Source of the DNA: Escherichia phage phiWec188
Sequence record: LC739537.1
Reading direction: 5' to 3' (one strand)
Length of the DNA stretch: 64,000 bases
In this document: one piece after another, positions 2,567 through 36,654 of the stretch
How positions within the stretch are numbered: the stretch's first letter is position 1
Layout: the number at the start of each line of letters is the position of its first letter
Made by a program: the position numbers and the translations under genes
The notes under the pieces: model-generated
Database searches by the model: none
What the model was told of the DNA's origin: nothing
The model's input: only the letters and a program-made list of their open reading frames with translations

Positions 2567-2760
2567 TCAGTGTGGCTGGATGGGTTGTACTGGCAACCCT
2601 CAACGGGAATGTCACCGTGGAGACTAAAACAGTCTTCAAAGCACCAGAAGATTGTTATAACTCTCTGGTGGCATGGCCTCGTGATGAGGATGATAAGGCA
2701 GAGTATCAGTGTTTTTACATTGAGGCTCAACCTGTTGAATTTGAGGTTAAAGTGAAATGA
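2563..2760 (+). CDS. hypothetical protein (65 aa)
   Basis: internal ATG of ORF 2545..2760 preceded by GGAGG; overlaps previous stop. Confidence 0.45.
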   Translation: MISVAGWVVLATLNGNVTVETKTVFKAPEDCYNSLVAWPRDEDDKAEYQCFYIEAQPVEFEVKVK

Positions 2761-3242
2761 AAATAAAAATTACTAAAGCAGAGGTAGATAACCCACAATT
2801 CTTTTCTTTGAATAAGAGTTACGATATTAAAAACGGAGACGAGTTTGATGTTGTAGATATGGTAACAGACTCTGATGGTGTAGACATTGGATATATGATT
2901 ATTCCGCCTTGTGGTGGTAGTCCTATTATCGTATTGCGTGACGAAGCTATAGAGGTATGTTCCGATGAACCTCCATATGACAGCCCATACATGACAGAGT
3001 GGGTTGTTGCTGTGGATGTTGGAGGTATGGTTTCTGTACTGAAAGCTCCTAATCTCCACCCTGGCTTCACAGAGAACGGTAAGACAGCTTTGGATTACGG
3101 GTTGCCGGAAGATGTTGACAATACACCGCCAGGCATGTATCGTTGGATCTGCTCTTTCCACGAAGAGAAGGATTGGGAATCAGGTCTTGTGGATGATTGG
3201 CATTTCAAAGTGGAGAGTTCTTTTTTAATCATGCCAGCTTAG
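2757..3242 (+). CDS. hypothetical protein (161 aa)
   Basis: ATGA overlap with previous gene; long ORF. Confidence 0.5.
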   Translation: MKIKITKAEVDNPQFFSLNKSYDIKNGDEFDVVDMVTDSDGVDIGYMIIPPCGGSPIIVLRDEAIEVCSDEPPYDSPYMTEWVVAVDVGGMVSVLKAPNLHPGFTENGKTALDYGLPEDVDNTPPGMYRWICSFHEEKDWESGLVDDWHFKVESSFLIMPA

Positions 3243-3252
3243 AGGAGGTTAT

Positions 3253-3597
3253 ATGAAAGTTTGGATAGATGATATGCGTAACCCAGCCGACTACGGACAG
3301 GAAGATGCCATTTGGTTTAAAACGTCACAAGAAGCTATGGAGTTTCTCAATGACCCTGCTAAACTGTATCGAAGAGTAACCGAGTGGTCCTTTGACAATG
3401 ACTTAGGTATGCAGTCAGACCAAGATGGGTATGACGTTTTCCTGCACTTGGAAGAACTCCTGGCGTTTGGTAAACCTTGCTTTGGTTCGCCTATCATCTT
3501 CGTGCATACTTCTAATCCCGCCGCTGGGGATAAATTCATGCTTGCAAAAGAATCCATGCTGCGTTATGGTATTCAAATGAAGCGTGTTCACTATTAA
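3253..3597 (+). CDS. hypothetical protein (114 aa)
   Basis: AGAGGAGG RBS upstream of ATG. Confidence 0.55.
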   Translation: MKVWIDDMRNPADYGQEDAIWFKTSQEAMEFLNDPAKLYRRVTEWSFDNDLGMQSDQDGYDVFLHLEELLAFGKPCFGSPIIFVHTSNPAAGDKFMLAKESMLRYGIQMKRVHY

Positions 3598-3606
3598 GGA
3601 GGTGTT

Positions 3607-3741
3607 ATGCTTTATGTTATTTGGGTAGATGAAGGGGATGGGTTTTATGTATACAAACACACTAACCATTGGCCCGATGTAGAAAAAGCACTTGCAACTT
3701 TTGAAGATTGCTTTTACGATATACATACAGACGAAGAGTAA
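3607..3741 (+). CDS. small ORF (44 aa), below ORF-track cutoff
   Basis: AAGGAGG RBS 4 nt after previous stop, ATG 9 nt later; fills an otherwise unexplained gap. Confidence 0.4.
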   Translation: MLYVIWVDEGDGFYVYKHTNHWPDVEKALATFEDCFYDIHTDEE

Positions 3742-3752
3742 GGAGAAACCTA

Positions 3753-4109
3753 ATGAGCAGTCTTGATCATAACATTTGTTACCAACCTCTCACTTGGATT
3801 GGTGAGGGTCATTATGCGCAACGTGTTATCGTCTGTGCTGCGAATAAGTATATTCTGAATAATGGTGAAGAGTTAATTATCCCTTGCGTTCGACATGCAA
3901 ATCCTGTACTATATGCACAGTTAAGCGTGTTGAAAGAAGCAGGTGCGATCAGCAAAACTTTGTGCACGCCAGATAATCAAGGTTTTATCGATCAGTATTA
4001 CAATTGGTGGAGTCGTGAGGATGCTTACATCATCGCGGAAAATGCTGACCAGATTGACCATGAGCGTAATGGTCACGACCATGAACTATTTAGCGAGGGA
4101 TTATACTAA
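3753..4109 (+). CDS. hypothetical protein (118 aa)
   Basis: internal ATG (MSSLDH...) of ORF 3708..4109 preceded by AAGGAGA. Confidence 0.5.
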   Translation: MSSLDHNICYQPLTWIGEGHYAQRVIVCAANKYILNNGEELIIPCVRHANPVLYAQLSVLKEAGAISKTLCTPDNQGFIDQYYNWWSREDAYIIAENADQIDHERNGHDHELFSEGLY

Positions 4110-4654
4110 TGTTTATTACAAGCGATTTGCATTTTATGCATAAACGTATTCGAGAGTTTGCTCCTGAATATCGTCCGTGGGAAGATATGGACCACATGAC
4201 AGAAGCCCTGATTGAAGCATGGAACAAATGTGCTACTACTCCTGGTGTTAAGATGTGGCATTTGGGCGACTTCTGTTTCGGGACTGAAGAAGATACCCGT
4301 AAGATTGCTTCCCGTCTCCAAGGAGATATCACTTATCTTGTTGGGAACCATGATTACAGCAAACACCGAGAAGTGCTTGCAGAGTATGGCGAAGTGAAGT
4401 ATTATGACGAAGTGAAATATCAGAAGCTGTTCTTCGTCTTAAGTCATTACCCTATTGCCTCCTGGAATAAACAGGGTCGCGGTAGTATTATGGTCCACGG
4501 GCATTCTCACGGATCTTTCCCTGATGAAGCCTACGGCAAGATGCTTGACGTTGGTTGGGATGCACATGGTAAGATTCTGCATTTTGATGAAGTTATTAAA
4601 ATGATGGAAAAGCGTGAAGTGATCACGGTAGACCATCACAAAATTATTCGATAG
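4109..4654 (+). CDS. calcineurin-like metallophosphoesterase / putative Ser-Thr protein phosphatase
   Basis: motifs D-x-H (SDLHF), GD (HLGDF), GNHD (LVGNHDY), GHxH (HGHSHG) typical of the metallophosphatase fold. Confidence 0.7.
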   Translation: MFITSDLHFMHKRIREFAPEYRPWEDMDHMTEALIEAWNKCATTPGVKMWHLGDFCFGTEEDTRKIASRLQGDITYLVGNHDYSKHREVLAEYGEVKYYDEVKYQKLFFVLSHYPIASWNKQGRGSIMVHGHSHGSFPDEAYGKMLDVGWDAHGKILHFDEVIKMMEKREVITVDHHKIIR

Positions 4655-4662
4655 GAGAGAAC

Positions 4663-4989
4663 ATGCAAATTTATACAGACGATCGTAAATATGAGACAAT
4701 TCTTGATGAAGACACTGGACGAATTACCGTTCTACGTCACGGTGAAGAATGGCGCGATGAGACTGGAGATAACTACATCTTATCTCTGATTCATGTTATT
4801 GAACAAATGCGCGATGATTACACTGAACTTCATTATGAAAATGAGCTAAACAAAGTAAAATTTGAAAACGCTCTTGAAGAGGAACGGGCTGAAATTAACA
4901 GTCTCAAAGAACTGGTTGCCCTACGTGATGAAGAAATCGACGGGCTGCAAGAAGAGATCTACGAACTTAACAGCGAACTGAACGGTTAA
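4663..4989 (+). CDS. hypothetical protein with C-terminal coiled coil (108 aa)
   Basis: GGAGAG RBS; heptad-like E/L-rich C-terminus. Confidence 0.5.
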   Translation: MQIYTDDRKYETILDEDTGRITVLRHGEEWRDETGDNYILSLIHVIEQMRDDYTELHYENELNKVKFENALEEERAEINSLKELVALRDEEIDGLQEEIYELNSELNG

Positions 4990-4998
4990 GGAGGAAAC

Positions 4999-5160
4999 AT
5001 GGTAACAACTTATGTGTTGTTTGCATTTTATATGCTTGGTAACGGTGTGAATGGTGACTACTCACACGATTTCGGATCTCAAGGTGCTTGCGAAATGGCT
5101 TTAGCAGAAGGAATCCGTCAGAATATATTTAAACGTGGATTCTGTACACCTAAAGGCTAA
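4999..5160 (+). CDS. small ORF (53 aa), hydrophobic N-terminus
   Basis: AAGGAGGAA RBS then ATG; fills the gap between 4989 and 5170. Confidence 0.4.
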   Translation: MVTTYVLFAFYMLGNGVNGDYSHDFGSQGACEMALAEGIRQNIFKRGFCTPKG

Positions 5161-5169
5161 GGAGCAATT

Positions 5170-5361
5170 ATGAAGAAAGATATCGTTGTTGTTGGTTGGC
5201 TGACTTGTCCTTGTGGCAGTCATGACATTACAGTAAACACGGAGGGTGATAAAGATTATTTGTTCTATGGTGATAAAATCACTTGCAATACCTGCGGACG
5301 TGTTGGTATTATAGAAACCGATGATTGTTGTGCTTTTGAATCTTGGGATGAAGAGGAATGA
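5170..5361 (+). CDS. small Cys-rich zinc-ribbon-like protein (63 aa)
   Basis: CPCGSH...CNTCGR pairs of Cys; AAGGAG RBS. Confidence 0.5.
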   Translation: MKKDIVVVGWLTCPCGSHDITVNTEGDKDYLFYGDKITCNTCGRVGIIETDDCCAFESWDEEE

Positions 5362-5585
5362 GTACTGCATTTTATGTACGTAACGAGGATGAAGATTTCC
5401 TTGCTTCTTTCGACGACGATTGCGATCTTGAAGAAATGTATGAAGACATGTTGGATTACGCCAAAGGTCAACGCTTTACGAGTGTTGATCATATGTTGGC
5501 AACTTCAACCATAATCTTGGATCAAGATTTGGATGAGATCTGCAATCGATTAAAAATTGCATTATTTACTTGGGACGAAACATAA
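5358..5585 (+). CDS. hypothetical acidic protein (75 aa)
   Basis: GAGGA RBS, ATGA overlap. Confidence 0.45.
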   Translation: MSTAFYVRNEDEDFLASFDDDCDLEEMYEDMLDYAKGQRFTSVDHMLATSTIILDQDLDEICNRLKIALFTWDET

Positions 5586-5809
5586 TGGCAACAACATTCT
5601 ATTTTGAAGGTAGTGAGAAAAAGACTTCCATTACCTTTCAAAGAAACACACCAGCAGAAGATTTCTTATGGATGATAATCGATCACCTGAAAAGCGAAGG
5701 TATTCACCATATAGACGAGTATTTCGCAGAGTCAACAGACTGGCAAAACGTTGTTATGGAAGATGTTATTTTCGAACTGCACCATATTATTACGGAGGAA
5801 GGAATTTGA
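5585..5809 (+). CDS. hypothetical protein (74 aa)
   Basis: ATG overlapping previous stop; alternative TTG start at 5570. Confidence 0.4.
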   Translation: MATTFYFEGSEKKTSITFQRNTPAEDFLWMIIDHLKSEGIHHIDEYFAESTDWQNVVMEDVIFELHHIITEEGI

Positions 5810-6921
5810 AACAGACAAATCAGACACTTTACGGTAAAGACTCAAATGGCAAACTGAAGCAATGGACTGTTTTCACAGACGGTGCAACAGTTACTGTAGC
5901 TCACGGTAAAGTTGGTGGAAAGATTACACAAAAATCATACGAAGCGGAAGCTAAAAATACTGGACGTGCAAATGCAACCACTCCAGAAGAACAAGCAGAA
6001 GCTGAAGCTTTTGCCAAGTGGACAAAACAACTGAAAAATGGTTATTATAAAACTATGGAAGAGGCGGAGAACCACGTCCCATCCACACCTATGAAATGCC
6101 AGGACTATAAAGATTTTGCGCATAAGGTGGTCTTCCCTGGATATGCACAATACAAACTGAATGGCTTACGTTCAATGATCAACATGAAGGGCGAATGTTT
6201 GTCTAAAGCTGGAGAAGTTTACAAACTCCCTCCGCACTGGCAAGGTATTCCAAACTTCATCAGCGAAGTTGTTGGTCATCCTCTGGATGGGGAAGTGTTC
6301 GCTGGTCTTGGTGTTCTTAGTTTGCAACAGATTAATAGTGCATGGAAAAAGCACAATGAGAACACGCCGCTCCTGAACTACTATGTTTACGATGTTCCTG
6401 TGGCAGATATGCCATTTGAGAAGCGTGTTGAAGTATTGGCGGCTCTTAAGGCTGTAGCTGAAGAGAGTGGTCTGGATGAACTGATCTGTGTCGTACATAC
6501 AGAGTATATTGAAAATCAAGAACAGTTGGATGCATTTTATGTTAAAGCTTTACTTGAAAAAGCTGAAGGTATCGTGTATCGTAATGCTCATGGTGTCTAT
6601 GAGTTTGATAAACGTTCCTATGACGTGATCAAACGAAAACCACGCCAGACTTTGGAAGTTAAAGTTATTTCTATGCGTTCTGATAAAAATAACGATGGGG
6701 TGTTGACAGGTGAGATGGAGAATGGTAAACTTGTTGAGTTCTTGATGCGAAAAGATGCTCACGAAACTATCAACTACCGTAAAGCAGAGAATGCCGAAAC
6801 TTTGATTGATCAGTTTGTTGAGATTGAGTATGAAGAATTTTCTGACGAAGGTATCCCAACTAAACCAGTCGGTGTACGTCTTCGTAAAATGATCCCAGGG
6901 ACTTGGGAGCCAGCAGAATAA
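5806..6921 (+). CDS. ATP-dependent DNA ligase-like nucleotidyltransferase (371 aa), probable TTG start
   Basis: covalent nucleotidyltransferase motifs: I KLNGLR (noncanonical N for D), III LDGEVF, IV EGIVYR, V VIKRK, C-terminal OB-like region; GGAGGAAGG RBS before in-frame TTG; N-terminal 46 codons of the ORF-track call overlap the upstream gene. Confidence 0.6.
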   Translation: MKQTNQTLYGKDSNGKLKQWTVFTDGATVTVAHGKVGGKITQKSYEAEAKNTGRANATTPEEQAEAEAFAKWTKQLKNGYYKTMEEAENHVPSTPMKCQDYKDFAHKVVFPGYAQYKLNGLRSMINMKGECLSKAGEVYKLPPHWQGIPNFISEVVGHPLDGEVFAGLGVLSLQQINSAWKKHNENTPLLNYYVYDVPVADMPFEKRVEVLAALKAVAEESGLDELICVVHTEYIENQEQLDAFYVKALLEKAEGIVYRNAHGVYEFDKRSYDVIKRKPRQTLEVKVISMRSDKNNDGVLTGEMENGKLVEFLMRKDAHETINYRKAENAETLIDQFVEIEYEEFSDEGIPTKPVGVRLRKMIPGTWEPAE

Positions 6922-6931
6922 AGGAGGTTGT

Positions 6932-7120
6932 ATGTTGATTTTAACAGTGTATATCTTGTTGTCAGTATTGGCTGTATGCTGTATGTTTCTTAGCTGTTGC
7001 AAAGATAAGACACTTTTAGTCTCTGTAGCAAAAACTATAGATGCGATAATGGCGGGTGTTGGGTACGCAGCAGTGATCTACATTTTCTGTTTTTACTTTG
7101 TGGCTGAATGGGTTAATTAA
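6932..7120 (+). CDS. small membrane protein (62 aa)
   Basis: AAAGGAGG RBS; two hydrophobic helices. Confidence 0.5.
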   Translation: MLILTVYILLSVLAVCCMFLSCCKDKTLLVSVAKTIDAIMAGVGYAAVIYIFCFYFVAEWVN

Positions 7121-7129
7121 GGGGGATTT

Positions 7130-7318
7130 ATGGGTGTTGAAGTTTTTCTGATTCTTTTGTTGCTTTCTATTGTGGCTTGTGGTATTATTATGGCTTCTAC
7201 ATTCCCATTAAACACTTGGTGGCGAAAATTAAGTCTGATGCTTATATACTGTGCAGCAGGTGCACAAATGGGTTCGGTTGTTGTCTACTTGACTGAACTC
7301 GCAAAAAACTATTTTTAA
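7130..7318 (+). CDS. small membrane protein (62 aa)
   Basis: AAGGGGGA RBS; hydrophobic. Confidence 0.5.
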   Translation: MGVEVFLILLLLSIVACGIIMASTFPLNTWWRKLSLMLIYCAAGAQMGSVVVYLTELAKNYF

Positions 7319-7331
7319 TAAGGAGAACAAG

Positions 7332-8060
7332 ATGATCGAGAACTTTTTTAAAGAGATTAAGGTAGATGTGGACTTCTATAAGAAAGCAGCTAAACATGTA
7401 ATCGATTGGAATGCAAAAGCGCGTGGCGGAGAACAGCCGGAATTTGACCAGGCAATGTTTGTTTCCCAAATCGGGTTTGTTCGTGAAGAACTGAAAGAGT
7501 ATGAAGAAGCCGCTAAAACTAATGATCACGTTGAACTCTTGGATGCAGCCGCCGATGTATTCGTTGTTTCCAGTTACCTGGTGTACATGTTCTTTGGTGA
7601 AGAAGCAACTCTGAAGTTCCTTGAGAATCAGGTTGGTACTGTCTTCACAGAAACAATCTACACCGATTTCGACAATATGGAAGCTACCTTCACTGATCCT
7701 GTTCAGATGGCAGTATTGAGTGCTGGTATTATGAACCTTGCGCGTGATACGCTGGTGCGTTCTGTTTATGCCGACAAAAAGATTATGAAAGAAGTTCTTG
7801 ACAGTAATGACTCTAAGTACCCTACTAAGAAGCAACTGCTGGCTGTATGGAATACTTCCGATATTGATCTTGCAATTTCACAAGAATGTGCAGCGATTGA
7901 AGAGCGTAATGCCAATCGTCCTGAAGGTGCTTACACTGGCGTACATGCTACGTACAATGAAAAACAGAAAGTTTATGTGTTCTTTGATGATAAAGGTAAG
8001 ATCATGAAGCCTTCTACCTTTGTTAAACCTGATATTGCAAAAATCATTACTAAGAAATAA
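7332..8060 (+). CDS. hypothetical protein; possible MazG-like all-alpha NTP pyrophosphohydrolase (242 aa)
   Basis: AAGGAGAA RBS; E-x-x-E-E...D acidic helix pattern (EELKEYEEAAKTNDHVELLDAAADV) reminiscent of MazG/HisE fold; weak. Confidence 0.3.
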   Translation: MIENFFKEIKVDVDFYKKAAKHVIDWNAKARGGEQPEFDQAMFVSQIGFVREELKEYEEAAKTNDHVELLDAAADVFVVSSYLVYMFFGEEATLKFLENQVGTVFTETIYTDFDNMEATFTDPVQMAVLSAGIMNLARDTLVRSVYADKKIMKEVLDSNDSKYPTKKQLLAVWNTSDIDLAISQECAAIEERNANRPEGAYTGVHATYNEKQKVYVFFDDKGKIMKPSTFVKPDIAKIITKK

Positions 8061-8065
8061 TCTGT

Positions 8066-8090
8066 AAGCCGCCCTTCGGGGCGGTTATTG
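8066..8090 (+). terminator. rho-independent terminator (GCCGCCC-TTCG-GGGCGG + T-rich)
   Basis: GC stem with tetraloop followed by TTATT just after stop codon; coordinates approximate. Confidence 0.5.
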
Positions 8091-8117
8091 TGAGAGTTAA
8101 ATAATAGGAGGAAATAT

Positions 8118-8996
8118 ATGTTCGTTAAATCTTTTAAATCTGCACTTCCGATGGTTGCTGGTGATAATGCTTCTGTAGCGTCTCTGAACGAGTTCAACGA
8201 ATTTCCGATTGACTTTGTACCTGCTGAAGGATCTCAAGCCCATACTATTGGTCTGGTTCGTTTTGAAGATGATGGGAAATACGTAAAAGAGTTCTCCGAT
8301 CTGGAACTCCTCCAGGTTGGTCAATCTGTTAAGAAAGTTGACAAGAAGAAAGTTAAACGTCTTCTTAATGAGCGCCTGGAAGAAATTCGAGTAGATATGG
8401 AAAGCCAAGGTCAAGAATTCTTTGTCGCTAAAGAAGACATGAAAGTCCTGAAAGCTGATATTGAATTTGGTCTGCTCCCAGAAACCGAACCGGAAGATTT
8501 CTTCAATTATGTGGTTCTGGATAAAACAACCAACCTGTTCTATGTGATCAACGGTAGTAAGAAAGTAGCGGAAGCTATTACTTGCTTCTTCCGTAATGTT
8601 TTGGGGACTTTCCCCTCTGTAGGTTTTAGTGTGCACGAAGAAGCAATTGTCAAAGGTTTTGGTACATTGTTGAAAGAACACGAAGCTGATCGCCTTACTC
8701 TTGGCAATTACATTAAACTGGAAGATAGTGAAGGTGTTGTTGTCTGGACGAAAGAATCTCTTTACGATTCCAAAGCAATCGAACTTAAAGAAGATGGTAA
8801 AGATGTTGTCGCTATTGGCTTGGAGTACGATGGTGTGCTGGAGTTTGTCGTAGATAAAGAGTTGAAGTTGAGCAAGCTTCGTTTCCCTAAATACTTCAAC
8901 GATGACGAAGGCTCTATTGAAGCATCTACTCTACTTTGCTTCAACGAGATTCGTGGTTTGATGGCAGATCTGACGAAAGCAACTATTCTTAAATAA
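8118..8996 (+). CDS. RdgC-like recombination-associated protein (292 aa)
   Basis: size and C-terminal segment GKDVVAIGLEYDGVLEFVVDKELKLSKLRF resembles E. coli RdgC [30 protein letters not shown]; from memory, unverified. Confidence 0.45.
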   Translation: MFVKSFKSALPMVAGDNASVASLNEFNEFPIDFVPAEGSQAHTIGLVRFEDDGKYVKEFSDLELLQVGQSVKKVDKKKVKRLLNERLEEIRVDMESQGQEFFVAKEDMKVLKADIEFGLLPETEPEDFFNYVVLDKTTNLFYVINGSKKVAEAITCFFRNVLGTFPSVGFSVHEEAIVKGFGTLLKEHEADRLTLGNYIKLEDSEGVVVWTKESLYDSKAIELKEDGKDVVAIGLEYDGVLEFVVDKELKLSKLRFPKYFNDDEGSIEASTLLCFNEIRGLMADLTKATILK

Positions 8997-20100: not shown

Positions 20101-20298
20101 ATGAAAGACCAAATGATTAATGGACCTCGTGTAACAGTTAGTCCTAAAACTTTTGCATCTCTTCTGGACGACACTGGTGAGGTTTATACTTACACAAGAG
20201 ATTCACTGCCTCTGCCTGAAAGTGCACAGGGTTCACGTTCGCTTTTTTATAAAGGTGTTCTTTTTACGGAAGCAAAAGAAGACAAGGAGACTAAATGA
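20101..20298 (+). CDS. hypothetical protein (65 aa)
   Basis: TAAGGAGA RBS. Confidence 0.5.
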   Translation: MKDQMINGPRVTVSPKTFASLLDDTGEVYTYTRDSLPLPESAQGSRSLFYKGVLFTEAKEDKETK

Positions 20299-21287
20299 GA
20301 TACCTGGTAACAGGTGGTCTTGGTTTCATTGGGAGCGCCGTAGTGCGCTCTCTTTGTCAAGATCCTAAAAATGAAGTTTTTGTTATTGATAAAATGGGCT
20401 ATGCTGCTGACATTGAAAATGTCGGAGATATTACTCATGCGAAACTAAGCATGACAGATCTGGTCGATGAAGCACAAGTTAAAAACTTGGTTGTTGAGTG
20501 TAACCCTGATTTCATCATTCACTTGGCAGCAGAGAGTCATGTAGACAATTCGATCAAGAATCCACGAGCTTTTATCGACTCTAACATCATCGGTACATAT
20601 AATCTGTTAGAAGCTGCAAGGCTTCTTCCTAAGAACAAGCTGAAGATGTTTGTACACGTCTCTACAGACGAAGTGTACGGCGATATGGAGGACTCTGGTG
20701 CTCCCTTTACCGAAGAGACAGCTTATGCTCCTTCAAGCCCATACAGCGCGTCTAAGGCGGCATCTGATCACCTTGTCAAAGCTTGGCACCGTACTTACGA
20801 TTTACCTGTAGTGATAACCAACTGTTCCAATAACTTTGGGCCTTACCAACACCCTGAAAAATTGATTCCAAAAGTGATCACGAACATCTTGACAGACCAA
20901 CCTATTCCCGTATACGGTAAAGGCGATCAGGTACGAGATTGGCTTTTCGTAGAAGATCATGCACGAGCTATTATTTTGGCAGCAACGGGCGGGGAAGTAG
21001 GACAAACCTACAACGTAGGTACACGCAATCCTAAAACAAACATGGAAATCATTTACATGATTTGTGATTACATGGATGCTGTTCACCCATCCTTCGGGAC
21101 ATACCCTGCTTCCGGTTTGATTAGTTTTGTTGAAGATCGTAAAGGTCATGACTTGCATTATGAAATCAATCCTGCTAAGATTGAATCTGAACTGGGTTGG
21201 AAAGCAAACTCTACATTCGAAGAAGACTTGTACTCTACGATTGAATGGTATTTAAATAATCCTCAATGGTGGAGTATGAAGATTTAA
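20295..21287 (+). CDS. rmlB: dTDP-glucose 4,6-dehydratase (330 aa)
   Basis: N-terminal Rossmann GGLGFIGS, catalytic YSASK (YxxxK), SDR extended family; first gene of 4-gene rml cluster. Confidence 0.85.
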
Positions 21288-21295
21288 GGAGGGTT

Positions 21296-22174
21296 ATGAA
21301 AGGTATTATTTTAGCGGGAGGAAGTGGAACCCGCCTACATCCTGTAACACGCAGTGTGAGCAAGCAATTGCTCCCTGTGTATGACAAACCTATGATTTAT
21401 TATCCTTTATCAGTCTTGATGTTGTCAGATATTAAGGATATCTTAATCATCACAACCCCAGGCGATCAGGAAGATTTTGAGTATCTTCTTGGAGATGGGT
21501 CTATGTTTGGAATAAAGATCACTTACGCAATGCAGTCTGAACCACGAGGTCTTGCAGATGCTTTCATCATCGGTAAAGATTTTATTGGGGAAGATTCTGT
21601 TGCTCTTATTTTAGGGGATAACTTGTTCTTCGGACAAAGTTTCGGAAAACTCCTTATCCAAGCCAGCGAAATGGTGGATGTTTGGGGTGGAGCTTGTATC
21701 TTCGGGTATCTGGTGAAAGATCCTGAACGATTCGGTGTTGTTGAGTTTGGAAGTAATCGCCAAGCTATCTCTATTGAAGAGAAACCGGAACATCCCAAAT
21801 CAGACTATGCAGTCACGGGTTTGTATTTCTATGACAACTCTGTTGTTCAACGTGCATTGGAAGTAACTCCTTCCGATCGTGGAGAACTGGAGATCACAGA
21901 TATCAATCGCAGCTACCTCGAAGACAGGAAGTTACAAGTGGAAGTTCTTGGAAGAGGATTCACTTGGTTGGATACAGGGACACACGCCAGTCTAATGGAA
22001 GCAGGTCAATTCGTGCAGACTATTGAGAACTGCCAAGGATTGAAGATTGCGTGCCTGGAAGAGATTGCTTTCAAAAAAGGGTGGATTTCTTTAGAGACTT
22101 TGGTGTATCATGGCAACTCATTGAAGAAAACAGAGTACGGGCAATATCTGTTAAAATTAGCGGAGGGTAAATGA
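21296..22174 (+). CDS. rmlA: glucose-1-phosphate thymidylyltransferase (292 aa)
   Basis: [16 protein letters not shown]...[18 protein letters not shown] signature of RmlA; TAAGGAGGG RBS. Confidence 0.9.
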
Positions 22175-22731
22175 AAATAAAAGAATTAAGTATTCCTGGT
22201 CTGGTTGTCTTTAAACCTCAAGTTTACAAAGATGATCGTGGTTCCTTCACGGAGACGTTTAACGAGAAGATTTACGAAGAGGTTATTGGCAAACAAACGT
22301 TTGTTCAGGATAACCATTCATTCTCTACTTTAGGTGTTCTTCGCGGAATGCACTTTCAAGTAAATAACCCGCAAGGTAAGCTTGTACGTTGCACACGAGG
22401 TGAAGTTTTTGACGTGGCTGTAGATCTTCGTGAAGGTAGTCCAACCTTCGGACAATGGGAAGGTGTGATTCTTAGTGGGTGTAACAATAAACAGTTGTGG
22501 ATTCCACCTGGCTTTGCACATGGTTTTGTTGTAACCTCTTATGAAGCCAACTTTGAATACAAGTGCACCAACTACTACGATCCGGCATCTGAACGTAGTT
22601 TGTTGTGGAACGATCCTACTGTGAATATTGATTGGGGTTTTGATATGATTTTCAATGATGAGAATTTTGTACCCATCATTTCGGAAAAGGATGCACAAGC
22701 TAAAACACTGAAGGAGCTTATGGGATCATGA
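22171..22731 (+). CDS. rmlC: dTDP-4-dehydrorhamnose 3,5-epimerase (186 aa)
   Basis: cupin-fold RmlC segments ([21 protein letters not shown]), ATGA overlap with rmlA. Confidence 0.85.
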
Positions 22732-23570
22732 AAACATATTTAGTATTGGGTGGTAATGGTCAATTAGGTCAGGCACTGCGTAAAGTGGTGCCGGAGAATG
22801 TGACTTTGGTGTATCCAGAAAAGCGTGTAGATATCACCAGTTTTGAAGCTGTGCGGAAAGCGATCATGGAAACCCCAAATATTAACGGTGTTATCAACTG
22901 TGCGGCATACACTGCTGTGGACAAAGCCGAGACAGATGTTGATGCAGCTATGGCTGTAAATTTACACGGGGCAGCTAATATTGCTGCCTTCTGTAAGGCT
23001 TGGGATATTGACATGGTGCATATTTCTACTGACTATGTGTTCAACAGCGATAAACCGTTGTTCCATCAGGATGAACCCAACCCTATCAATGTTTACGGGT
23101 TATCTAAAAGTTTGGGTGAAGCTGCTGTTCGTGGTATCTACCATAAAGCTTTTATTATCCGCACGGCTTCTGTGTATAGCGAGTTTGGTAACAACTTCCT
23201 GAAGACTATGGTATCTCGTTACAACGATGGTCAAAGAAACTTCTCGGTAGTTGCAGATCAAACATCTCGACCAACTTATGCCCCAGATTTGGCTAAGATG
23301 ATTTTCCAAGTGTTGGAAACAGGATATAACACCCGTACTTTGCATTACGCTGGGAACATCACTGTTTCGTGGCACCAGTTCGCAAAAATGATATTGACAC
23401 GTATGCCTGAATCTGTTATTATACACCCGACCTCTGCTGCAACCTATAATTCGGCAGCGATGCGACCAGCAAAGTCTATACTAATTACGTCTGGTTGGAA
23501 CGAACCTTCAAGCGTCGGACAAGGTATTGAAGAATCTTTAGCAGTATTACTTAATAAGGAGAGAGCATGA
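22728..23570 (+). CDS. rmlD: dTDP-4-dehydrorhamnose reductase (280 aa)
   Basis: N-terminal GGNGQLG Rossmann motif, ISTDYVF segment; follows rmlC with ATGA overlap. Confidence 0.8.
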   Translation: MKTYLVLGGNGQLGQALRKVVPENVTLVYPEKRVDITSFEAVRKAIMETPNINGVINCAAYTAVDKAETDVDAAMAVNLHGAANIAAFCKAWDIDMVHISTDYVFNSDKPLFHQDEPNPINVYGLSKSLGEAAVRGIYHKAFIIRTASVYSEFGNNFLKTMVSRYNDGQRNFSVVADQTSRPTYAPDLAKMIFQVLETGYNTRTLHYAGNITVSWHQFAKMILTRMPESVIIHPTSAATYNSAAMRPAKSILITSGWNEPSSVGQGIEESLAVLLNKERA

Positions 23571-28784: not shown

Positions 28785-29114
28785 ATGGAAATTACTACAG
28801 AACAGGCTCTTATCGACGAAGGGCGTAAAATCTTAGAGAAGCATTTGGGAGATATACATCAAACCCCTGGCTACTTAGGGTGGCGCATGGTTGAAGCTGT
28901 AGATTTCCTTCCTCGCACCAAACAAGACGTTGAAATGCGTTCTCTGTTTTTGCTTGTTAAGGTAGACGGAGATACGCCTTTCAAGCTGGCAGCTTCACAC
29001 ATTGAGAAGGTGGAGGAGAAAGCTTATTCAGAGTTTGCCGAACTCGTATTACAGGAGGATCTCGAAGGGAAGGTAAACATTTTTATTTTTCTGGATTTTG
29101 AGGAGGAGATATGA
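28785..29114 (+). CDS. hypothetical protein (109 aa)
   Basis: GAGGAGGAAGGG RBS. Confidence 0.5.
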   Translation: MEITTEQALIDEGRKILEKHLGDIHQTPGYLGWRMVEAVDFLPRTKQDVEMRSLFLLVKVDGDTPFKLAASHIEKVEEKAYSEFAELVLQEDLEGKVNIFIFLDFEEEI

Positions 29115-29848
29115 TTTTATATAAAGAGATTACCGTGGAGCAGGATCAAGACCTCTTCATTATCGGGGACTTGCATGGTTGCTACGATCTTTACTTGAAA
29201 GGTAAGAATTATCTTGGTATCCGAGATACAGATGTGGTTGTGTCTCTCGGAGATTTGACAGATCGTGGTAAACAAAACTTCAAATGTGTTGTAGAGTTTT
29301 GTCGCAAAGAGAATCGTTATGCTCTCTGTGGTAATCACGAAGATATGATGATTAAAGGCTTACTGGAAGGGGATCGTCGTTACTACGAATGTTGGTATCA
29401 GAATGGTGGTCATACGGTATTGGCAGAATGTGATGAAGAAGGATCTACTCTGCTCGCTACGATGGTTGAGGACAACCCTGTGATTTTGGTTGTGAACTAT
29501 CGAGGTATGAAGTTAGGGTTTATTCATGGTGGATATCCTTCCTCTTTTGAATATCTTCCCCTGACAGACATACCACACCTACGTATGAGCAAAGCAAAAG
29601 AAGCTACTTTCGCTGAAGCTTTGATGTGGGATCGTGATATGGTGGAGTGTGCCAAAGAAGGCATGAAACTTCCGGTTGTTATGGGTGTTGATTATGTGTT
29701 TCACGGGCACTCTTATGTGAAAGAACCTTTGATCAATGCTAATCGTGTTTATATGGATACTGGGTCTGTTTTCAATAACAACTTAACGTTTGCCTATTTT
29801 GATGCAGACGGTGGACTTCAGTTTTATTCAACTTTACAGGAGGATTAA
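29111..29848 (+). CDS. Ser/Thr protein phosphatase, lambda-PP-like (245 aa)
   Basis: GDLHGCYD, GDLTDRG, GNHE motifs of PPP-family phosphatases. Confidence 0.8.
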   Translation: MILYKEITVEQDQDLFIIGDLHGCYDLYLKGKNYLGIRDTDVVVSLGDLTDRGKQNFKCVVEFCRKENRYALCGNHEDMMIKGLLEGDRRYYECWYQNGGHTVLAECDEEGSTLLATMVEDNPVILVVNYRGMKLGFIHGGYPSSFEYLPLTDIPHLRMSKAKEATFAEALMWDRDMVECAKEGMKLPVVMGVDYVFHGHSYVKEPLINANRVYMDTGSVFNNNLTFAYFDADGGLQFYSTLQED

Positions 29849-30141
29849 TGTATAAAATTACAATCGTAGAATCTGTGGGCGAGATTCGTAAAGAAATTAT
29901 TCTGGAGACGGAAGATCTGGAACTGGTACGTGAAATCATAATTGGGAAGGATGTAGATAAGGTTGAGTCGGACGCTCCGAATCTGATGATCGATGATCAA
30001 TATGCAGAATTTCGTCGTATTTTTGAGGAGGAAAGGAAGAAGTGGGGCAAAGAACCACACGTTTTTCGTCCTTATAATCCATATCCTTCTGGTGATCCGT
30101 GGATCATGACTAACAGAAACCCGTTTGAAATAACCTGTTGA
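29848..30141 (+). CDS. hypothetical protein (97 aa)
   Basis: TAATG overlap. Confidence 0.45.
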   Translation: MYKITIVESVGEIRKEIILETEDLELVREIIIGKDVDKVESDAPNLMIDDQYAEFRRIFEEERKKWGKEPHVFRPYNPYPSGDPWIMTNRNPFEITC

Positions 30142-30149
30142 GGTGGCTT

Positions 30150-30728
30150 ATGAGCAACCTATTTTACACAGGTGTGGGAAGTCGAGAGATAACCCACGAA
30201 GAATGGGATTTAATGGTCGCTGTAGCAAAGTGGTTGGCTAACTGTGGTTTTACTTTACGTTCAGGTAATGCAAACGGTAGTGACTCTGCTTTCGAAACTG
30301 GTGTAGAAGAATCTAAAAACAAAACTCTCAAGGAGATTTATATCCCTTGGGAGAAGTTTGAAGGTAATGATATCCCAGGTGAGAAAATAGTGCTTGCTAA
30401 TCCTGACAGTATGAACTATGCTATCAGTCTCCAGTGGATAAAGGAAATCCATCCAGCATTTGATAAACTTAAACAAGGTGCACGTAAATTGCATCAACGT
30501 AACGTTCATCAGGTGTTGGGACAAGACCTGGAGCATCCTGTGCCTTCCTTATTCTTATTGGCATGTTCCAAAGAGGATAAGAAGGGAGATGTTATGGGTG
30601 GAACACGGACGGCGTGGCTCATCGCTAAAGCTAATAACGTTCCATGTTTTAACTTACGTGGTAAAACAAAGGAAGAACTTTATGCTTTTCTTAAACCGTT
30701 GGTCAAGGGGGCAATCAGTGGCAATTAA
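30150..30728 (+). CDS. Rossmann-fold protein, DprA/Smf- or SLOG-like (192 aa)
   Basis: YTGVGSR...SGNANGSDSAFETG glycine-rich pattern typical of DprA/SLOG nucleotide-binding domains; weak. Confidence 0.3.
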   Translation: MSNLFYTGVGSREITHEEWDLMVAVAKWLANCGFTLRSGNANGSDSAFETGVEESKNKTLKEIYIPWEKFEGNDIPGEKIVLANPDSMNYAISLQWIKEIHPAFDKLKQGARKLHQRNVHQVLGQDLEHPVPSLFLLACSKEDKKGDVMGGTRTAWLIAKANNVPCFNLRGKTKEELYAFLKPLVKGAISGN

Positions 30729-32246: not shown

Positions 32247-32253
32247 TGTGAGT

Positions 32254-32284
32254 GTTGACAAGACACGAAGAACCTGGTAGACTT
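32254..32284 (+). promoter_or_regulatory. candidate promoter TTGACA-N17-TAGACT
   Basis: consensus -35 just after terminator, weaker -10. Confidence 0.35.
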
Positions 32285-32311
32285 GTCTCATCAACTAAGA
32301 GAGGAGGATAT

Positions 32312-33256
32312 ATGAAAGTATTAATCGGTAGTCGTGCGTTGGAAATGATTTGTCGTTCTCGTGGTGTAGAACTGTATCGTGCTTGCGTAGATCTGGATTA
32401 CCTCTGCACTGAAGAAGAGTGGCAAGCAGAAGCCCAGAAATTCTCGAAAGATCGTTTCGTGGAAATTGTTGAACGTAAAGGTAACAAAGGGCATATCAAA
32501 ATGATCGCGGGTGCTCATCTGGAATACGATATTGCTCAACCAGGGGATTCTACAGAAGCATTGATCGAATATATTAAAGAGAATGCAGATCATCTGCCAC
32601 ATATTGGTTACGATGTGGTTGCACCTTTGGATGTTTTGTATCTCCTGAAAATGAGTCACCGTTTTAAGAAGGACAGTCCTCACTTCCTGAAAACAATGAA
32701 GGATATCCACTTCATGCGCAACCTTGGAGCGAAGATCCCTGAAGAGTTGGAAGATACATACAAACTGCGTCAGAAGGAGTCCTATAATTACGGGCACCCT
32801 AATCTGAACGTGAAAAGTAAAGATTTCTTCAAGGGTGATGAAGTGCCTTATGTGTATGATCACGATACCATCCATGAAGCTGTTGCCGTGTTGGGTGATC
32901 CCGCTTATAAATCATACATGAAAGACGATAGCGAAGTGATGACCAGTAAAGAGAAGTTCTTTGCACAACCTAAACATATCCGTTTGCTGGGTGTTTACGA
33001 AGAAGCTTGTGTCCTGGCATTAGAGCGTTCACAGATCCCGTTTGGGGAAGATGTAGATGGTCCAACTCCTAAACAAAGTTTTATGATGGCTTTATCCAAA
33101 GTTTGTACCTCGATCACCAGTGGATGGTTTCGTGAATATGCCTGGGAAAACTTCCAAGTTGTGGTAAAACTGTATGAGCAAATGGGCCAAGATGATTACG
33201 TGGCACGTTTTAAAGCAAATCTTCACATGGTGAAACCTTACGAAGGAGGTTATTGA
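32312..33256 (+). CDS. hypothetical protein (314 aa)
   Basis: AGAGGAGGA RBS at internal ATG of ORF 32252..33256. Confidence 0.55.
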   Translation: MKVLIGSRALEMICRSRGVELYRACVDLDYLCTEEEWQAEAQKFSKDRFVEIVERKGNKGHIKMIAGAHLEYDIAQPGDSTEALIEYIKENADHLPHIGYDVVAPLDVLYLLKMSHRFKKDSPHFLKTMKDIHFMRNLGAKIPEELEDTYKLRQKESYNYGHPNLNVKSKDFFKGDEVPYVYDHDTIHEAVAVLGDPAYKSYMKDDSEVMTSKEKFFAQPKHIRLLGVYEEACVLALERSQIPFGEDVDGPTPKQSFMMALSKVCTSITSGWFREYAWENFQVVVKLYEQMGQDDYVARFKANLHMVKPYEGGY

Positions 33257-34332: not shown

Positions 34333-34997
34333 TGACCCATTTAAAACCTTTTGGTGGAAAACCTATTGTGGCGTATCAAGTAGATCGTGATGATTGGGAA
34401 GGCAGTGTAGTTGTCTTTGGTAATCATTTCTTTGCTGTGCGTCGTAAAGGCGCAAGTATGTTGGATTGTGAGGAGGAGTATTGTCATGTCTCCCGCGCCA
34501 AAGAATTCGACCAGTATGCAGAAAAAGGTTTTGTGCCTGTCAAAGCTTTACTGGAGGCAGGATGGTGGATACACTCTGCTCATGATGGTGTTAGACTTGA
34601 CGAGTCTGTAGATAATCTTGAGGCAGATTTTGACGAATGGGAAGATGGCATGTATATTGAGGAGGATCTTGTATTTTCCCTTGACGAGAAAAGTGTGTGG
34701 AAGAACTGGGAAGAAATGGAACGTCACGCGCATTTTATCAACAACGCTTTGATTCGTAAAGCCTGGTTCACAGAGGCGGTGAAGGTAGCGTATCCGCAAT
34801 TCACCTTTACGGAGGTTTGGGGCGGTCCACACCACATCACCCATACAGCATTTTTCGACTTCCCTGGTTCACGTTACAAAGGTAATGTAATGTGGGACTG
34901 GGATGAGAATGAAGTACCATCTGTTCAAGACTTTCGTTGTTATGTTTGCCAAGGCGATCAAGAAGCCCTTGACAAATACCTGCAAAGTCTGGTATAG
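34329..34997 (+). CDS. hypothetical protein (222 aa)
   Basis: AAGGAGGAATG RBS, ATGA overlap. Confidence 0.5.
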   Translation: MMTHLKPFGGKPIVAYQVDRDDWEGSVVVFGNHFFAVRRKGASMLDCEEEYCHVSRAKEFDQYAEKGFVPVKALLEAGWWIHSAHDGVRLDESVDNLEADFDEWEDGMYIEEDLVFSLDEKSVWKNWEEMERHAHFINNALIRKAWFTEAVKVAYPQFTFTEVWGGPHHITHTAFFDFPGSRYKGNVMWDWDENEVPSVQDFRCYVCQGDQEALDKYLQSLV

Positions 34998-35011
34998 TGC
35001 AAGCAACTGAA

Positions 35012-35041
35012 CAAAGCCTCCTTTTCAGGGGGCTTTTCTTT
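35012..35041 (+). terminator. rho-independent terminator (AGCCTCC...GGGGGCT + TTTCTTTT)
   Basis: stem-loop + T-tract after stop. Confidence 0.5.
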
Positions 35042-35055
35042 TATGAGGAGGGAAT

Positions 35056-35550
35056 ATGTTTCAAGTAGAAATCCATGTGCACAACAGTTGTTCAAATTGC
35101 GAAACTTGTGGTTACAATAGTTCAACCATGATCACTATTAGCGGAGACTTAGGACATGCCAAGTTTGGCGAAGTCGCAAGCTGCTTCAGCGGAGAGGATG
35201 CAGATTGGCATGATATTGCTTTGTGGCTATGCGGAAGACTGAATGTAAATTGTAAAGACTTCCCTGAACTGTTGAGCCGAAATCTTGTCGATAGTCGGGA
35301 ACAAGCCTACAATATTTATGCCGCTTCTGTTTATGTTGATCATAAATGGGTAGAAGATGAAGAAGCTGAACGTTTGCTACGCCTCTACTATGAAGCAGAG
35401 GAAGCTTATGATAACTATTACAGCATGTCCAACATCCTGCGTTTGTTTGCAGAGTTTGATATTTACTTTGAAGTGAGTTATTCTGAAGATGAAGTGTATG
35501 ATTTTGATGACGATGATTACGAGGAGGATGAAGAATGCCAAGACGATTAA
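35056..35550 (+). CDS. hypothetical protein, Cys-rich N-terminus and strongly acidic C-terminus (164 aa)
   Basis: AGGAGGG RBS; CSNCETCG motif; DDDDYEEDEE tail. Confidence 0.5.
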   Translation: MFQVEIHVHNSCSNCETCGYNSSTMITISGDLGHAKFGEVASCFSGEDADWHDIALWLCGRLNVNCKDFPELLSRNLVDSREQAYNIYAASVYVDHKWVEDEEAERLLRLYYEAEEAYDNYYSMSNILRLFAEFDIYFEVSYSEDEVYDFDDDDYEEDEECQDD

Positions 35551-36338
35551 TAGTGATCAGCGGCGCTGGTCTAAGCGCCGATAGCGGTGTACAAACATTC
35601 CGTACAGAAACAGAGAGTGGAAAAGCATTATGGGACGAGTACGATTTAGAGGAGGTTTGTAATATTGGGGCATTCCAGGCAGGTTATCGTAGACGTACAT
35701 GTCCCGATTTACCTGTTATCGGAGGTGAGGATGAGGAAGGATACAACCTCTACAACAAGACCCATGATTTCTATAACAAGCGTCGTATAGAGTTGGATAA
35801 TATAGATCCAAACGCTGCACATCGTCTGATTGCTCGTTTATACTCAGAGTATGGCGCTGATCGTATTTTAAACATTACCACTAACGTAGACGATCTTTTG
35901 GAACGTGCTGGTGTTGTTCACGAAGATGTTCTGCATGTGCATGGCTACCTACCAGAAATTGTAGTGGATCGGAAGTTTATTAAAGAAATCGGTTATGCAA
36001 GTGTGGATGTGGATAAGTACGATTACGTGAAACCTAACGTTGTCTTCTTCGGGGAATCTGCTCCGCTGTACACAGAGATGTACCATATGCTCGATAATCT
36101 CACATCTCAGGATATGGTGATTGTTGTAGGTTGCTCTAATCAAGTGATCAACTTCAACTGGGAGTTGTTCCCAGCCCTCAATACAGGAACAAAGATGGTC
36201 GTAGTTAATCCTGGGGTTAATTACGAAGAAACACTTCTCTATGAAGATCGTGGAGTTTTTGTTTACCGAGAAAAAGCTGCAACAGCCTTCAGTAATGAAG
36301 GTTTCATTAAAATGATCGAAGACCACTTAAACAAATAA
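35535..36338 (+). CDS. SIR2-family (sirtuin-like) NAD-binding protein (267 aa)
   Basis: GAGLSADSGVQTFR (GAGxSxxSGIxxFR), TTNVDDLLERAG (TQNIDxLHxxAG), HG and VVFFGES motifs of Sir2 domain; canonical Cys4 Zn module not evident. Confidence 0.6.
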   Translation: MPRRLIVISGAGLSADSGVQTFRTETESGKALWDEYDLEEVCNIGAFQAGYRRRTCPDLPVIGGEDEEGYNLYNKTHDFYNKRRIELDNIDPNAAHRLIARLYSEYGADRILNITTNVDDLLERAGVVHEDVLHVHGYLPEIVVDRKFIKEIGYASVDVDKYDYVKPNVVFFGESAPLYTEMYHMLDNLTSQDMVIVVGCSNQVINFNWELFPALNTGTKMVVVNPGVNYEETLLYEDRGVFVYREKAATAFSNEGFIKMIEDHLNK

Positions 36339-36343
36339 ACCAA

Positions 36344-36369
36344 CCAAGGGGCTACGGCCCCTTTCTTAT
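36344..36369 (+). terminator. rho-independent terminator (GGGGC-TACG-GCCCC + TTTCTT)
   Basis: stem-loop after SIR2-like gene. Confidence 0.5.
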
Positions 36370-36381
36370 TAGGAGATTACT

Positions 36382-36654
36382 ATGCAACAAGAAACTTTCG
36401 ATTTTTATCTCGCCAATTATGTCTACTACTTCTCTAATGGTACACAGAAAGGGGAAGGCAATCTTTACTTGGCTACCAACACTGGAGCAGGTGTTCGTAA
36501 AGCCAATATTGATTTAGCAAGAGAAACAGTTCGTTCTGGACTGGAAGAGACGCTTGAAACTCCAGTTGTTGTGGTTATACAAACTATCAGTTACCTTGCA
36601 ACCTGTACTAAAGAGGATTTTGAGGCTCCTCAAACGCAATCTAACGAAGCATAA
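36382..36654 (+). CDS. hypothetical protein (90 aa), last + strand gene
   Basis: TAGGAGA RBS. Confidence 0.5.
   Translation: MQQETFDFYLANYVYYFSNGTQKGEGNLYLATNTGAGVRKANIDLARETVRSGLEETLETPVVVVIQTISYLATCTKEDFEAPQTQSNEA

Follow-up and report, generated by a model that had tools for sequence, protein, structure and literature searches.

Which reaction does a SIR2-family protein (sirtuin), an enzyme class dependent on nicotinamide adenine dinucleotide (NAD+), carry out when it is encoded by a virulent phage? This question is raised by the gene at positions 35535-36338 of a 64,000-nucleotide (nt) stretch of Escherichia phage phiWec188 (LC739537.1), hereafter the window, which matches Escherichia phage phiWec190 (LC739539.1; Phapecoctavirus, Stephanstirmvirinae) at 100% identity; the latter name is used below. 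The initial annotation had placed a phage-encoded SIR2-family protein of 267 amino acids (aa) here, and the open reading frame (ORF), Pfam, and PHROG agreed with it: the product matched Pfam SIR2 (PF02146) with an E-value of 7.1e-21 (75.4 bits; cutoff, 24) and PHROG 2162, 'Sir2 (NAD-dependent deacetylase)', with an E-value of 7e-100 over its full length (residues 2-267). The assignment is far above chance; no other Rossmann family emerged, and the catalytic residues were all present. The complementary strand was stop-rich, and the GC content of the gene (~0.42) was the same as that of the surrounding genome, this uniform base composition giving no sign of recent horizontal acquisition. The sirtuin gene is real and intact and belongs to a known, computationally described phage family, and its product is a derived class III (CobB / Sir2-Af1 / SIRT5-like) sirtuin, not a defense-type SIR2 NAD+ glycohydrolase (NADase).

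The placement among class III sirtuins was carried by comparisons with solved structures. A search profile derived from an alignment of 28 phage homologues (alignment A1) retrieved Escherichia coli CobB first (E-value, 1.2e-25), followed by Sir2-Af2, Sir2-Af1, SIRT5, and Sir2Tm; the identity of the phage sirtuin to class III sirtuins of the CobB type was only ~28%. The AlphaFold2 (AF2) model of the protein, with a predicted local distance difference test score (pLDDT) of 90.3 and a predicted template-modeling score (pTM) of 0.88, was uncertain only at the cofactor-binding loop (residues 24-31). In a Foldseek search with this model, the top 50 structures were all canonical sirtuins, led by CobB with a target template-modeling score (TM) of 0.82-0.85. 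Defense proteins ranked after the canonical sirtuins (PsSIR2, 13.4; HerA-Sir2, 12.3 and 11.8; ThsA, 11.7; Avs5, 10.2 and 9.3). The PADLOC defense models gave no ThsA, DSR, or HerA-SIR2 match, the best score (E-value, 0.0022) covering a 35-aa stretch of PDC-S65, and no HerA, SLOG, pAgo/APAZ, or STAND partner was found fused or adjacent to the single-domain product. The proposal that the protein resembles the NADase-type SIR2 domains of bacterial defense systems more closely than canonical deacetylases is therefore not supported, in view of the leading rank of CobB/SIRT5-type proteins, the empty PADLOC result, and the lack of a partner domain.

Residues of the active site were compared with those of CobB, whose numbering was mapped through PDB entries of engineered CobB mutants. 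CobB A76, located by the A76G mutant, corresponded to phage C42; Y92, located by the Y92A mutant (6rxs), in which FANARR lies opposite FYNKRR of the phage profile, to Y80; and R95, three positions past Y92 in that alignment, to R83. The I131C mutant set Q129/N130/I131/D132 of CobB against T116/N117/V118/D119 of the phage protein, and counting from I131 set H147 against H136 at the aligned 'HMHG'. The V187Y mutant (6rxs) set V187 against V169 and, by counting from V187, F190 against F172. The sequence motifs that had suggested a sirtuin in the first place were all recovered, namely GAGLSADSGVQTFR (residues 10-23), TTNVDDLLERAG (115-126), HG (136-137), and VVFFGES (169-175). The residues invariant in A1 were G10, A11, G12, S14, S17, F22, R23, N117, D119, H136, and G137, together with C42, Y80, R83, R84, V169, F171, F172, E174, G199, S201, and N225; G173 was conserved, and most of the invariant residues were also retained in distant members from Vibrio phages and jumbo phages. 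Judged from these alignments, the NAD+ pocket, the catalytic His136, the FGE substrate loop, and the class III trio Cys42/Tyr80/Arg83 are intact. In SIRT5 and CobB, the corresponding trio of a small residue, Tyr, and Arg takes succinyl- and malonyl-lysine. Both enzymes are deacetylases and desuccinylases (PMC8556138).

The absence of a Cys4 zinc module, also pointed out in the initial annotation, was borne out. The protein contains only three Cys residues (C42, C56, and C200), none of them within residues 137-169, which align to the zinc ribbon of CobB, and the module was missing in 28/28 aligned homologues. The AF2 model predicted a beta module with strands at residues 137-144, 148-151, and 165-169 (pLDDT, 93-94) where the aligned CobB segment holds four Cys residues. 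Variation within the family was found elsewhere in the protein, in that the insertion of ~25 residues at positions 48-72 was missing from rV5-like, Mydovirus, and some T5-like members.

Zinc loss and the existence of a distinct phage clade have been reported before. In Vibrio phages phiSt2, phiGrn1, and KVP40, Skliros et al. (2016; PMC5107563) found Sir2/CobB proteins devoid of the zinc ligand site. They also named T5, SPC35, GAP32, and My1 as further carriers and suggested that host acetyl-CoA synthetase is deacetylated; their experiments were limited to transcript measurements. Iyer, Burroughs, Anantharaman, and Aravind (2022; PMC9503650) set apart a 'distinct clade' formed by sirtuins of proteobacterial phages, tied it to RNA-end-processing genes, and predicted KptA-like removal of RNA 2'-phosphates.

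Our searches traced the extent of the clade and a substitution that accompanies zinc loss. Using tblastn, we found homologues in 980 of 50,697 phage records, most of them labeled Sir2-like, with identities of 70-74% in phAPEC8-like, 52-57% in T5-like, ~50% in rV5-like, and ~57% in Mydovirus phages, and, more distantly, 37-40% in 250-kb Vibrio phages and 30-39% in several jumbo phages. Among T5-like phages, chee24 carries an extra 98-aa 'Sir2' ORF (L004 9192-9488) downstream of the full gene, and the match in DT57C is limited to a 36-aa stretch; such fragments indicate that the gene can decay and is probably not essential in the T5-like lineage. A profile search run exhaustively over 1.84 billion representatives returned 5268 proteins at an E-value of 1e-3 or lower, 1340 at 1e-10 or lower, and 109 at 1e-30 or lower. 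For 140 of the best 150 relatives, the number of ribbon Cys residues was tabulated against the first residue of the QNxD motif. Gln occurred with at least three ribbon Cys residues in 79 sequences and with two or fewer in 4, whereas a non-Gln residue occurred with at least three in 16 and with two or fewer in 41, so that loss of the ribbon Cys residues goes with replacement of the Gln by Thr, Ala, or Ser (41 + 79 concordant against 20 mixed). A neighbor-joining tree placed the phage sirtuin in a clade whose 42 leaves are zinc-less and non-Gln without exception, which, in a tree built without bootstrapping, suggests a single origin of the zinc and Gln losses. In this tree, the clade nests among zinc-containing relatives with the class III Tyr/Arg pair; zinc loss is a trait of the phage clade and not a sign of kinship with defense SIR2 proteins. 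Among 142 sequences, Tyr80 was present in 135, Arg83 in 107, and His136 in all 142. The family is acidic (isoelectric point (pI), 4.6-5.8; net charge, ~-17), a charge that fits a protein substrate better than RNA.

We tentatively favor an NAD+-dependent lysine deacylase that would reset host protein acylation during infection, a reading that leads the field but falls short of firm expectation. The enzyme would bind NAD+, an oxygen nucleophile of the substrate would attack C1' of the nicotinamide ribose, and nicotinamide would leave; His136 would then promote attack by the ribose 2'-OH, giving O-acyl-ADP-ribose as the product. The substrate would most likely be an acyl-lysine of a host or phage protein, and a negatively charged acyl group (succinyl, malonyl, or glutaryl) is possible because of the Tyr/Arg pair. 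Deacylation is preferred because the nearest relatives are all deacylases, the loop lining the lysine tunnel is conserved, the family is acidic, and the gene has been kept in a phage without an RNA ligase, a kinase, or NAD+ salvage genes.

Several observations weigh against a lysine deacylase. In the deposited record LC739539.1, the product is named 'cobB, NAD-dependent protein deacylase' (BDU13633.1); the NCBIfam CobB models (NF040867, NF001753, and related models) scored at best 101.4 bits (cutoff, 243) and 84.9 bits (cutoff, 320), so that the deposited name overstates the case, and orthology to CobB was ruled out by scores far below the equivalog and subfamily cutoffs. The phage sirtuin also departs from CobB at sites of potential importance: Thr stands in place of Gln in QNxD, 'INF' in place of 'VYP', and the zinc is lost. 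Its Tyr/Arg pair could hold a phosphate as readily as a carboxylate. Literature searches yielded no biochemical work on members of the clade. Finally, gene order in other lineages points to other substrates or to small-molecule products, through linkage to RNA repair and to NAD+ salvage. In the rV5-like phage RudolfGeigy, the order is polynucleotide kinase, phosphoesterase, RNA ligase, a small protein, and the sirtuin; in the Mydovirus KpS8, it is phosphoesterase, RNA ligase, ATPase, sirtuin, DNA ligase, and MazG, with NAMPT and Prs ~5 kb away; and in an Eneladusvirus jumbo phage, the sirtuin lies between NMNAT/ADP-ribose pyrophosphatase plus NAMPT on one side and a Nudix hydrolase on the other.

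The best-placed alternative, possible though on balance unlikely, is the Tpt1/KptA-like RNA repair predicted by Iyer et al. (2022). Here the oxygen of an RNA 2'-phosphate would attack C1' of NAD+, and the 2'-OH, assisted by His136, would then yield ADP-ribose 1''-2'' cyclic phosphate and RNA with a 2'-OH, the last step in mending tRNAs that host anticodon nucleases have cleaved. In RudolfGeigy and KpS8, members of the clade are accompanied by RNA ligase, polynucleotide kinase, cREC, and phosphoesterase genes, in agreement with PMC9503650, and the invariant anion pocket formed by Tyr80 and Arg83 could accept the phosphate. The RNA-repair linkage was not seen at the loci of one T5-like phage and one Vibrio phage. 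The sirtuin and Tpt1 chemistries are formally parallel, which counts for RNA repair; T4-type repair by Pnkp and Rnl1 leaves no 2'-phosphate, which counts against it.

The genome of phiWec190 itself bears on this alternative. A cluster of RNA-end-processing genes is collinear with that of phage EF1-1 at 76-95% protein identity, and its cREC, calcineurin-like (Metallophos), and MazG genes (3253-8060), which would suit RNA repair, are still present. They are, however, 27-32 kb from the sirtuin. In EF1-1, genes for an RNA ligase and an ATPase/kinase separate the phosphoesterase gene from the following ORF; in phiWec190, a 5-nt gap (4658-4662) takes their place. Searches with the rV5, Mydovirus, and EF1-1 proteins as queries found no RNA ligase or kinase in the window or anywhere in the phiWec190 genome; both genes have been cleanly lost, and the sirtuin is intact. 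Most carriers, moreover, are T5-like phages without an rV5-type ligase (among Salmonella phages, 289 records with the sirtuin against 14 with the ligase), and such a strongly acidic family (~-17) would be unusual for an RNA-binding enzyme.

A broader conjecture, speculative and rather improbable, is that the zinc-less phage sirtuins are not deacylases at all. Tyr80 and Arg83 would present an anionic group of a nucleic acid or small molecule (for example, an RNA 2'-phosphate) to NAD+, the loss of zinc and Gln would mark the change of substrate, and the enzyme of Stephanstirmvirinae would have parted from the RNA ligase module and become coupled to an acidic partner that regulates or targets it. 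If this were true, these proteins would be the first sirtuins to act on a macromolecule other than protein.

We consider it improbable that the protein is a macromolecular ADP-ribosyltransferase, modifying a host protein or nucleic acid and redirecting host machinery as SirTM or SIRT4/6 can. An intact NAD+ pocket would permit such a reaction, the Thr of the QNxD motif and the changed substrate loop could be ill suited to deacylation, and phages commonly use ADP-ribosylation (PMC9503650). However, neither a macrodomain nor another partner for reversal was seen among the neighboring genes, and the catalytic His and the acyl-pocket Tyr and Arg are kept as in deacylases.

Still less credible is a NADase acting in counter-defense, which would drain NAD+ or break down immune signals derived from NAD, in the manner of NAD+ depletion by Thoeris, DSR, or SIR2-HerA effectors. 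The zinc-ribbon Cys residues are missing as they are in defense SIR2 proteins, and the proximity of NAMPT, NMNAT, or Nudix genes to the sirtuin in Eneladusvirus and Mydovirus would fit heavy NAD+ turnover. Against this stand the structural ranking of defense SIR2 proteins well below deacylases, the absence of PADLOC matches and of a sensor or partner domain, and the conservation of acyl-pocket residues that have no part in simple hydrolysis. Furthermore, nothing homologous to the NAMPT, NMNAT, Prs, and Nudix proteins encoded beside the sirtuin elsewhere was found in phiWec190, leaving no NAD+ salvage genes to offset depletion in a virulent phage that needs NAD+. That the sirtuin is a dispensable or decaying accessory gene of no important activity in phiWec190, as the fragments in DT57C (36-aa match) and chee24 (98-aa ORF) might indicate, is scarcely credible in view of a full-length ORF with all catalytic residues invariant across lineages at 37-57% identity, a strong Shine-Dalgarno sequence, and a base composition matching the genome.

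A very acidic protein is encoded immediately upstream of the sirtuin (Table 1). This partner (pI, 4.05; net charge, ~-31) has invariant H9, C15, C18, and C43, and its homologues were found in 130 phage records, essentially all of Stephanstirmvirinae, with the sirtuin gene following directly even where identity falls to 33% (for example, phages 92CQ and alia). Its 3' end overlaps the sirtuin start by 16 nt, and the Shine-Dalgarno sequence and ATG of the sirtuin lie inside its last codons, so that the two genes are probably translationally coupled; invariance of the C-terminus of the partner may merely reflect the overlapping sirtuin start. Structural prediction for the partner reached a pLDDT of 77 with only nine close homologues, the best Foldseek match had an E-value of 0.05 and a TM of 0.24, and the PDB sequence search was empty. 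The charge of the partner recalls DNA-mimic anti-restriction proteins, but no relative by sequence or fold was found for it. Upstream of the partner gene, at 34969-35036, a promoter-like site is followed within ~15 nt by a hairpin and then by the ribosome-binding site of the partner, an odd order that could represent an attenuator or a structure in the 5' untranslated region.

Table 1. Positions of the sirtuin gene, its functional sites, and surrounding features
Feature	Position	Strand	Basis or remark
phiWec190 RNA-end-processing cluster: 161-aa ORF, cREC_REC (3253-3597), 133-aa ORF, calcineurin-like phosphoesterase (4109-4654), 108-aa ORF, ATP-dependent DNA ligase (5668-6921), MazG-like (7332-8060), RdgC (8118-8996)	2757-8996	+	
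DUF7277 + DUF7275 protein, 334 aa, head of gene run	32252-33256	+	E-value, 2e-76
Methyltransferase-like protein, 227 aa	33649-34332	+	FDGSG, GFPPC, and ENPVG motifs; PHROG 757 'DNA methyltransferase', E-value, 1e-82
Promoter-like site TTGACA-18-TATAGT, extended TG, 11/12	34969-34998	+	Consensus match only
Strong terminator-like hairpin and T-run, between 222-aa ORF and partner gene	35013-35036	+	Consensus match only
Partner gene, 164 aa	35056-35550	+	PHROG 9509, E-value, 6e-62; CxxC at residues 15-18; disordered acidic tail
Shine-Dalgarno sequence GAGGAGG of the sirtuin	35521-35527	+	7-nt spacing to ATG (35535-35537); inside last codons of partner (stop, 35548-35550)
Sirtuin gene, 267 aa, single domain	35535-36338	+	ATG-to-TAA ORF; Pfam, PHROG, AF2 model
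Codons G10-R23 (GAGLSADSGVQTFR), NAD-binding glycine-rich loop and Phe-Arg pair	35562-35603	+	Aligns to CobB GAGISAESGIRTFR
Cys42 codon, small acyl-pocket residue (CobB Ala76)	35658-35660	+	Cys in all phage members, Ala in CobB
Residues ~48-72, variable insertion in helical small-domain region	35676-35750	+	Alignments; model pLDDT ~90
Codons F79-Y80-N81-K82-R83-R84, with class III Tyr/Arg pair Tyr80/Arg83 (CobB Y92/R95)	35769-35786	+	Alignment
Codons T115-T116-N117-V118-D119, QNxD motif with Gln replaced by Thr	35877-35891	+	T116 aligns to Gln of CobB 'TQNID'
Codons His136-Gly137, catalytic general base His136 (CobB H147)	35940-35945	+	Aligned to CobB 'HMHG'
Residues 137-169, Cys-free three-stranded beta module in place of Cys4 zinc ribbon	35943-36041	+	Alignment, model
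Codons V169-V170-F171-F172-G173-E174, 'FGE' loop lining acyl-lysine tunnel	36039-36056	+	Aligns to CobB V187-E192 (VVWFGE)
Terminator-like hairpin, 8 nt past sirtuin stop, before 90-aa ORF (36382-36654)	36346-36363	+	Weak T-run; consensus match only

The genes around the sirtuin run in the order DUF7275/7277 protein, 132-aa ORF, methyltransferase-like gene, 222-aa ORF, 164-aa partner, sirtuin, and 90-aa ORF. The initial annotation had set the sirtuin directly after a Cys-rich, acidic protein and a C5-methyltransferase-like gene; the Cys-containing acidic protein is indeed immediately upstream, whereas the methyltransferase-like gene lies two genes further up, with the 222-aa ORF in between. 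Homologues of these immediate neighbors were not found beside the sirtuin at rV5-like, T5-like, or Mydovirus loci, the partner being conserved only within Stephanstirmvirinae, and Pfam and PHROG searches detected neither RNA-end-processing domains nor a macrodomain among them. The methyltransferase-like protein had no Pfam match, and its sole PDB match was M.HaeIII (E-value, 0.44) over motifs I-IV (FxGxG, PPC); it is short for a C5 methyltransferase. The DUF7275/7277 protein, for which a PDB sequence search gave no significant match, shows by eye a GS...DxD motif near the N-terminus and later H/HD-like motifs, and could be a nucleotidyltransferase plus phosphohydrolase.

Further upstream on the same strand, 5-6 kb from the sirtuin, a DprA-like (SLOG-type Rossmannoid) gene was found at 30138-30728 (PHROG 768, E-value, 8e-63; weak Pfam DNA_processg_A match), adjoined by a gene for a NinI-like calcineurin-type phosphatase at 29111-29848 (Metallophos, E-value, 1.7e-11). 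SLOG-type domains can bind nucleotide-derived ligands. A complete dTDP-rhamnose pathway (rffG, glucose-1-phosphate thymidylyltransferase, rfbC, and rfbD) is given by the deposited annotation at ~20294-23569 (+; L001 7295-10570), just past nrdA/nrdB in the same run.

Sirtuins of this type are found in ~2% of sequenced phage genomes, including model and therapeutic T5-like, rV5-like, and phAPEC8-like phages. Whether they act as deacylases, as removers of RNA 2'-phosphates, as ADP-ribosyltransferases, or as NADases would indicate how a large group of virulent phages spends host NAD+, a question that bears on NAD+-centered immunity and counter-immunity. Our analysis added to the published description the retention of the class III pocket, the joint loss of zinc and of the Gln in QNxD, the clean loss of the ligase and kinase, and the lineage-specific acidic partner.

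Among the known systems compared with the phage sirtuin, the RNA 2'-phosphotransferase Tpt1/KptA has an unrelated fold and no homology; the resemblance is a functional analogy only, through a proposed parallel in reaction logic. SirTM, the macrodomain-linked ADP-ribosylating sirtuin, shares 13% identity and ranks below all class I-IV deacylases except SIRT6 and SIRT7; the likeness is limited to a conceivable non-deacylase activity, and the phage sirtuin has no adjacent macrodomain gene. With the defense SIR2 proteins (ThsA of Thoeris, DSR1/DSR2, SIR2-HerA/Nezha, SIR2-APAZ/pAgo, and Avs5), it has in common the Rossmann fold, NAD+ as a substrate, the lack of a canonical zinc ribbon, and a conceivable role in phage-host conflict; unlike them, it is a single-domain protein with no sensor or oligomerizing partner and keeps the class III acyl pocket. 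The class III sirtuins CobB, Archaeoglobus Sir2-Af1, and human SIRT5, which are NAD+-dependent deacetylases, desuccinylases, and demalonylases, share with it the catalytic His, NxD, the FGE loop, and the acyl-pocket trio, and differ from it in carrying the Cys4 zinc and the Gln of QNxD (Thr in the phage protein) and in not being encoded by a virulent phage. Its own family is that of the zinc-less phage sirtuins (PHROG 2162; T5-like, rV5-like, Mydovirus, KVP40/phiSt2-like, and Eneladusvirus); although no RNA ligase/polynucleotide kinase/cREC or NAMPT/NMNAT/Nudix genes adjoin the sirtuin here, as they do in the rV5, Mydovirus, and Eneladusvirus members, the phiWec190 protein is homologous to this family over its full length at 37-74% identity and has in common with it the NAD-pocket residues, the Tyr/Arg pair, the His, the Cys-free ribbon, and the TNxD/ANxD motif.

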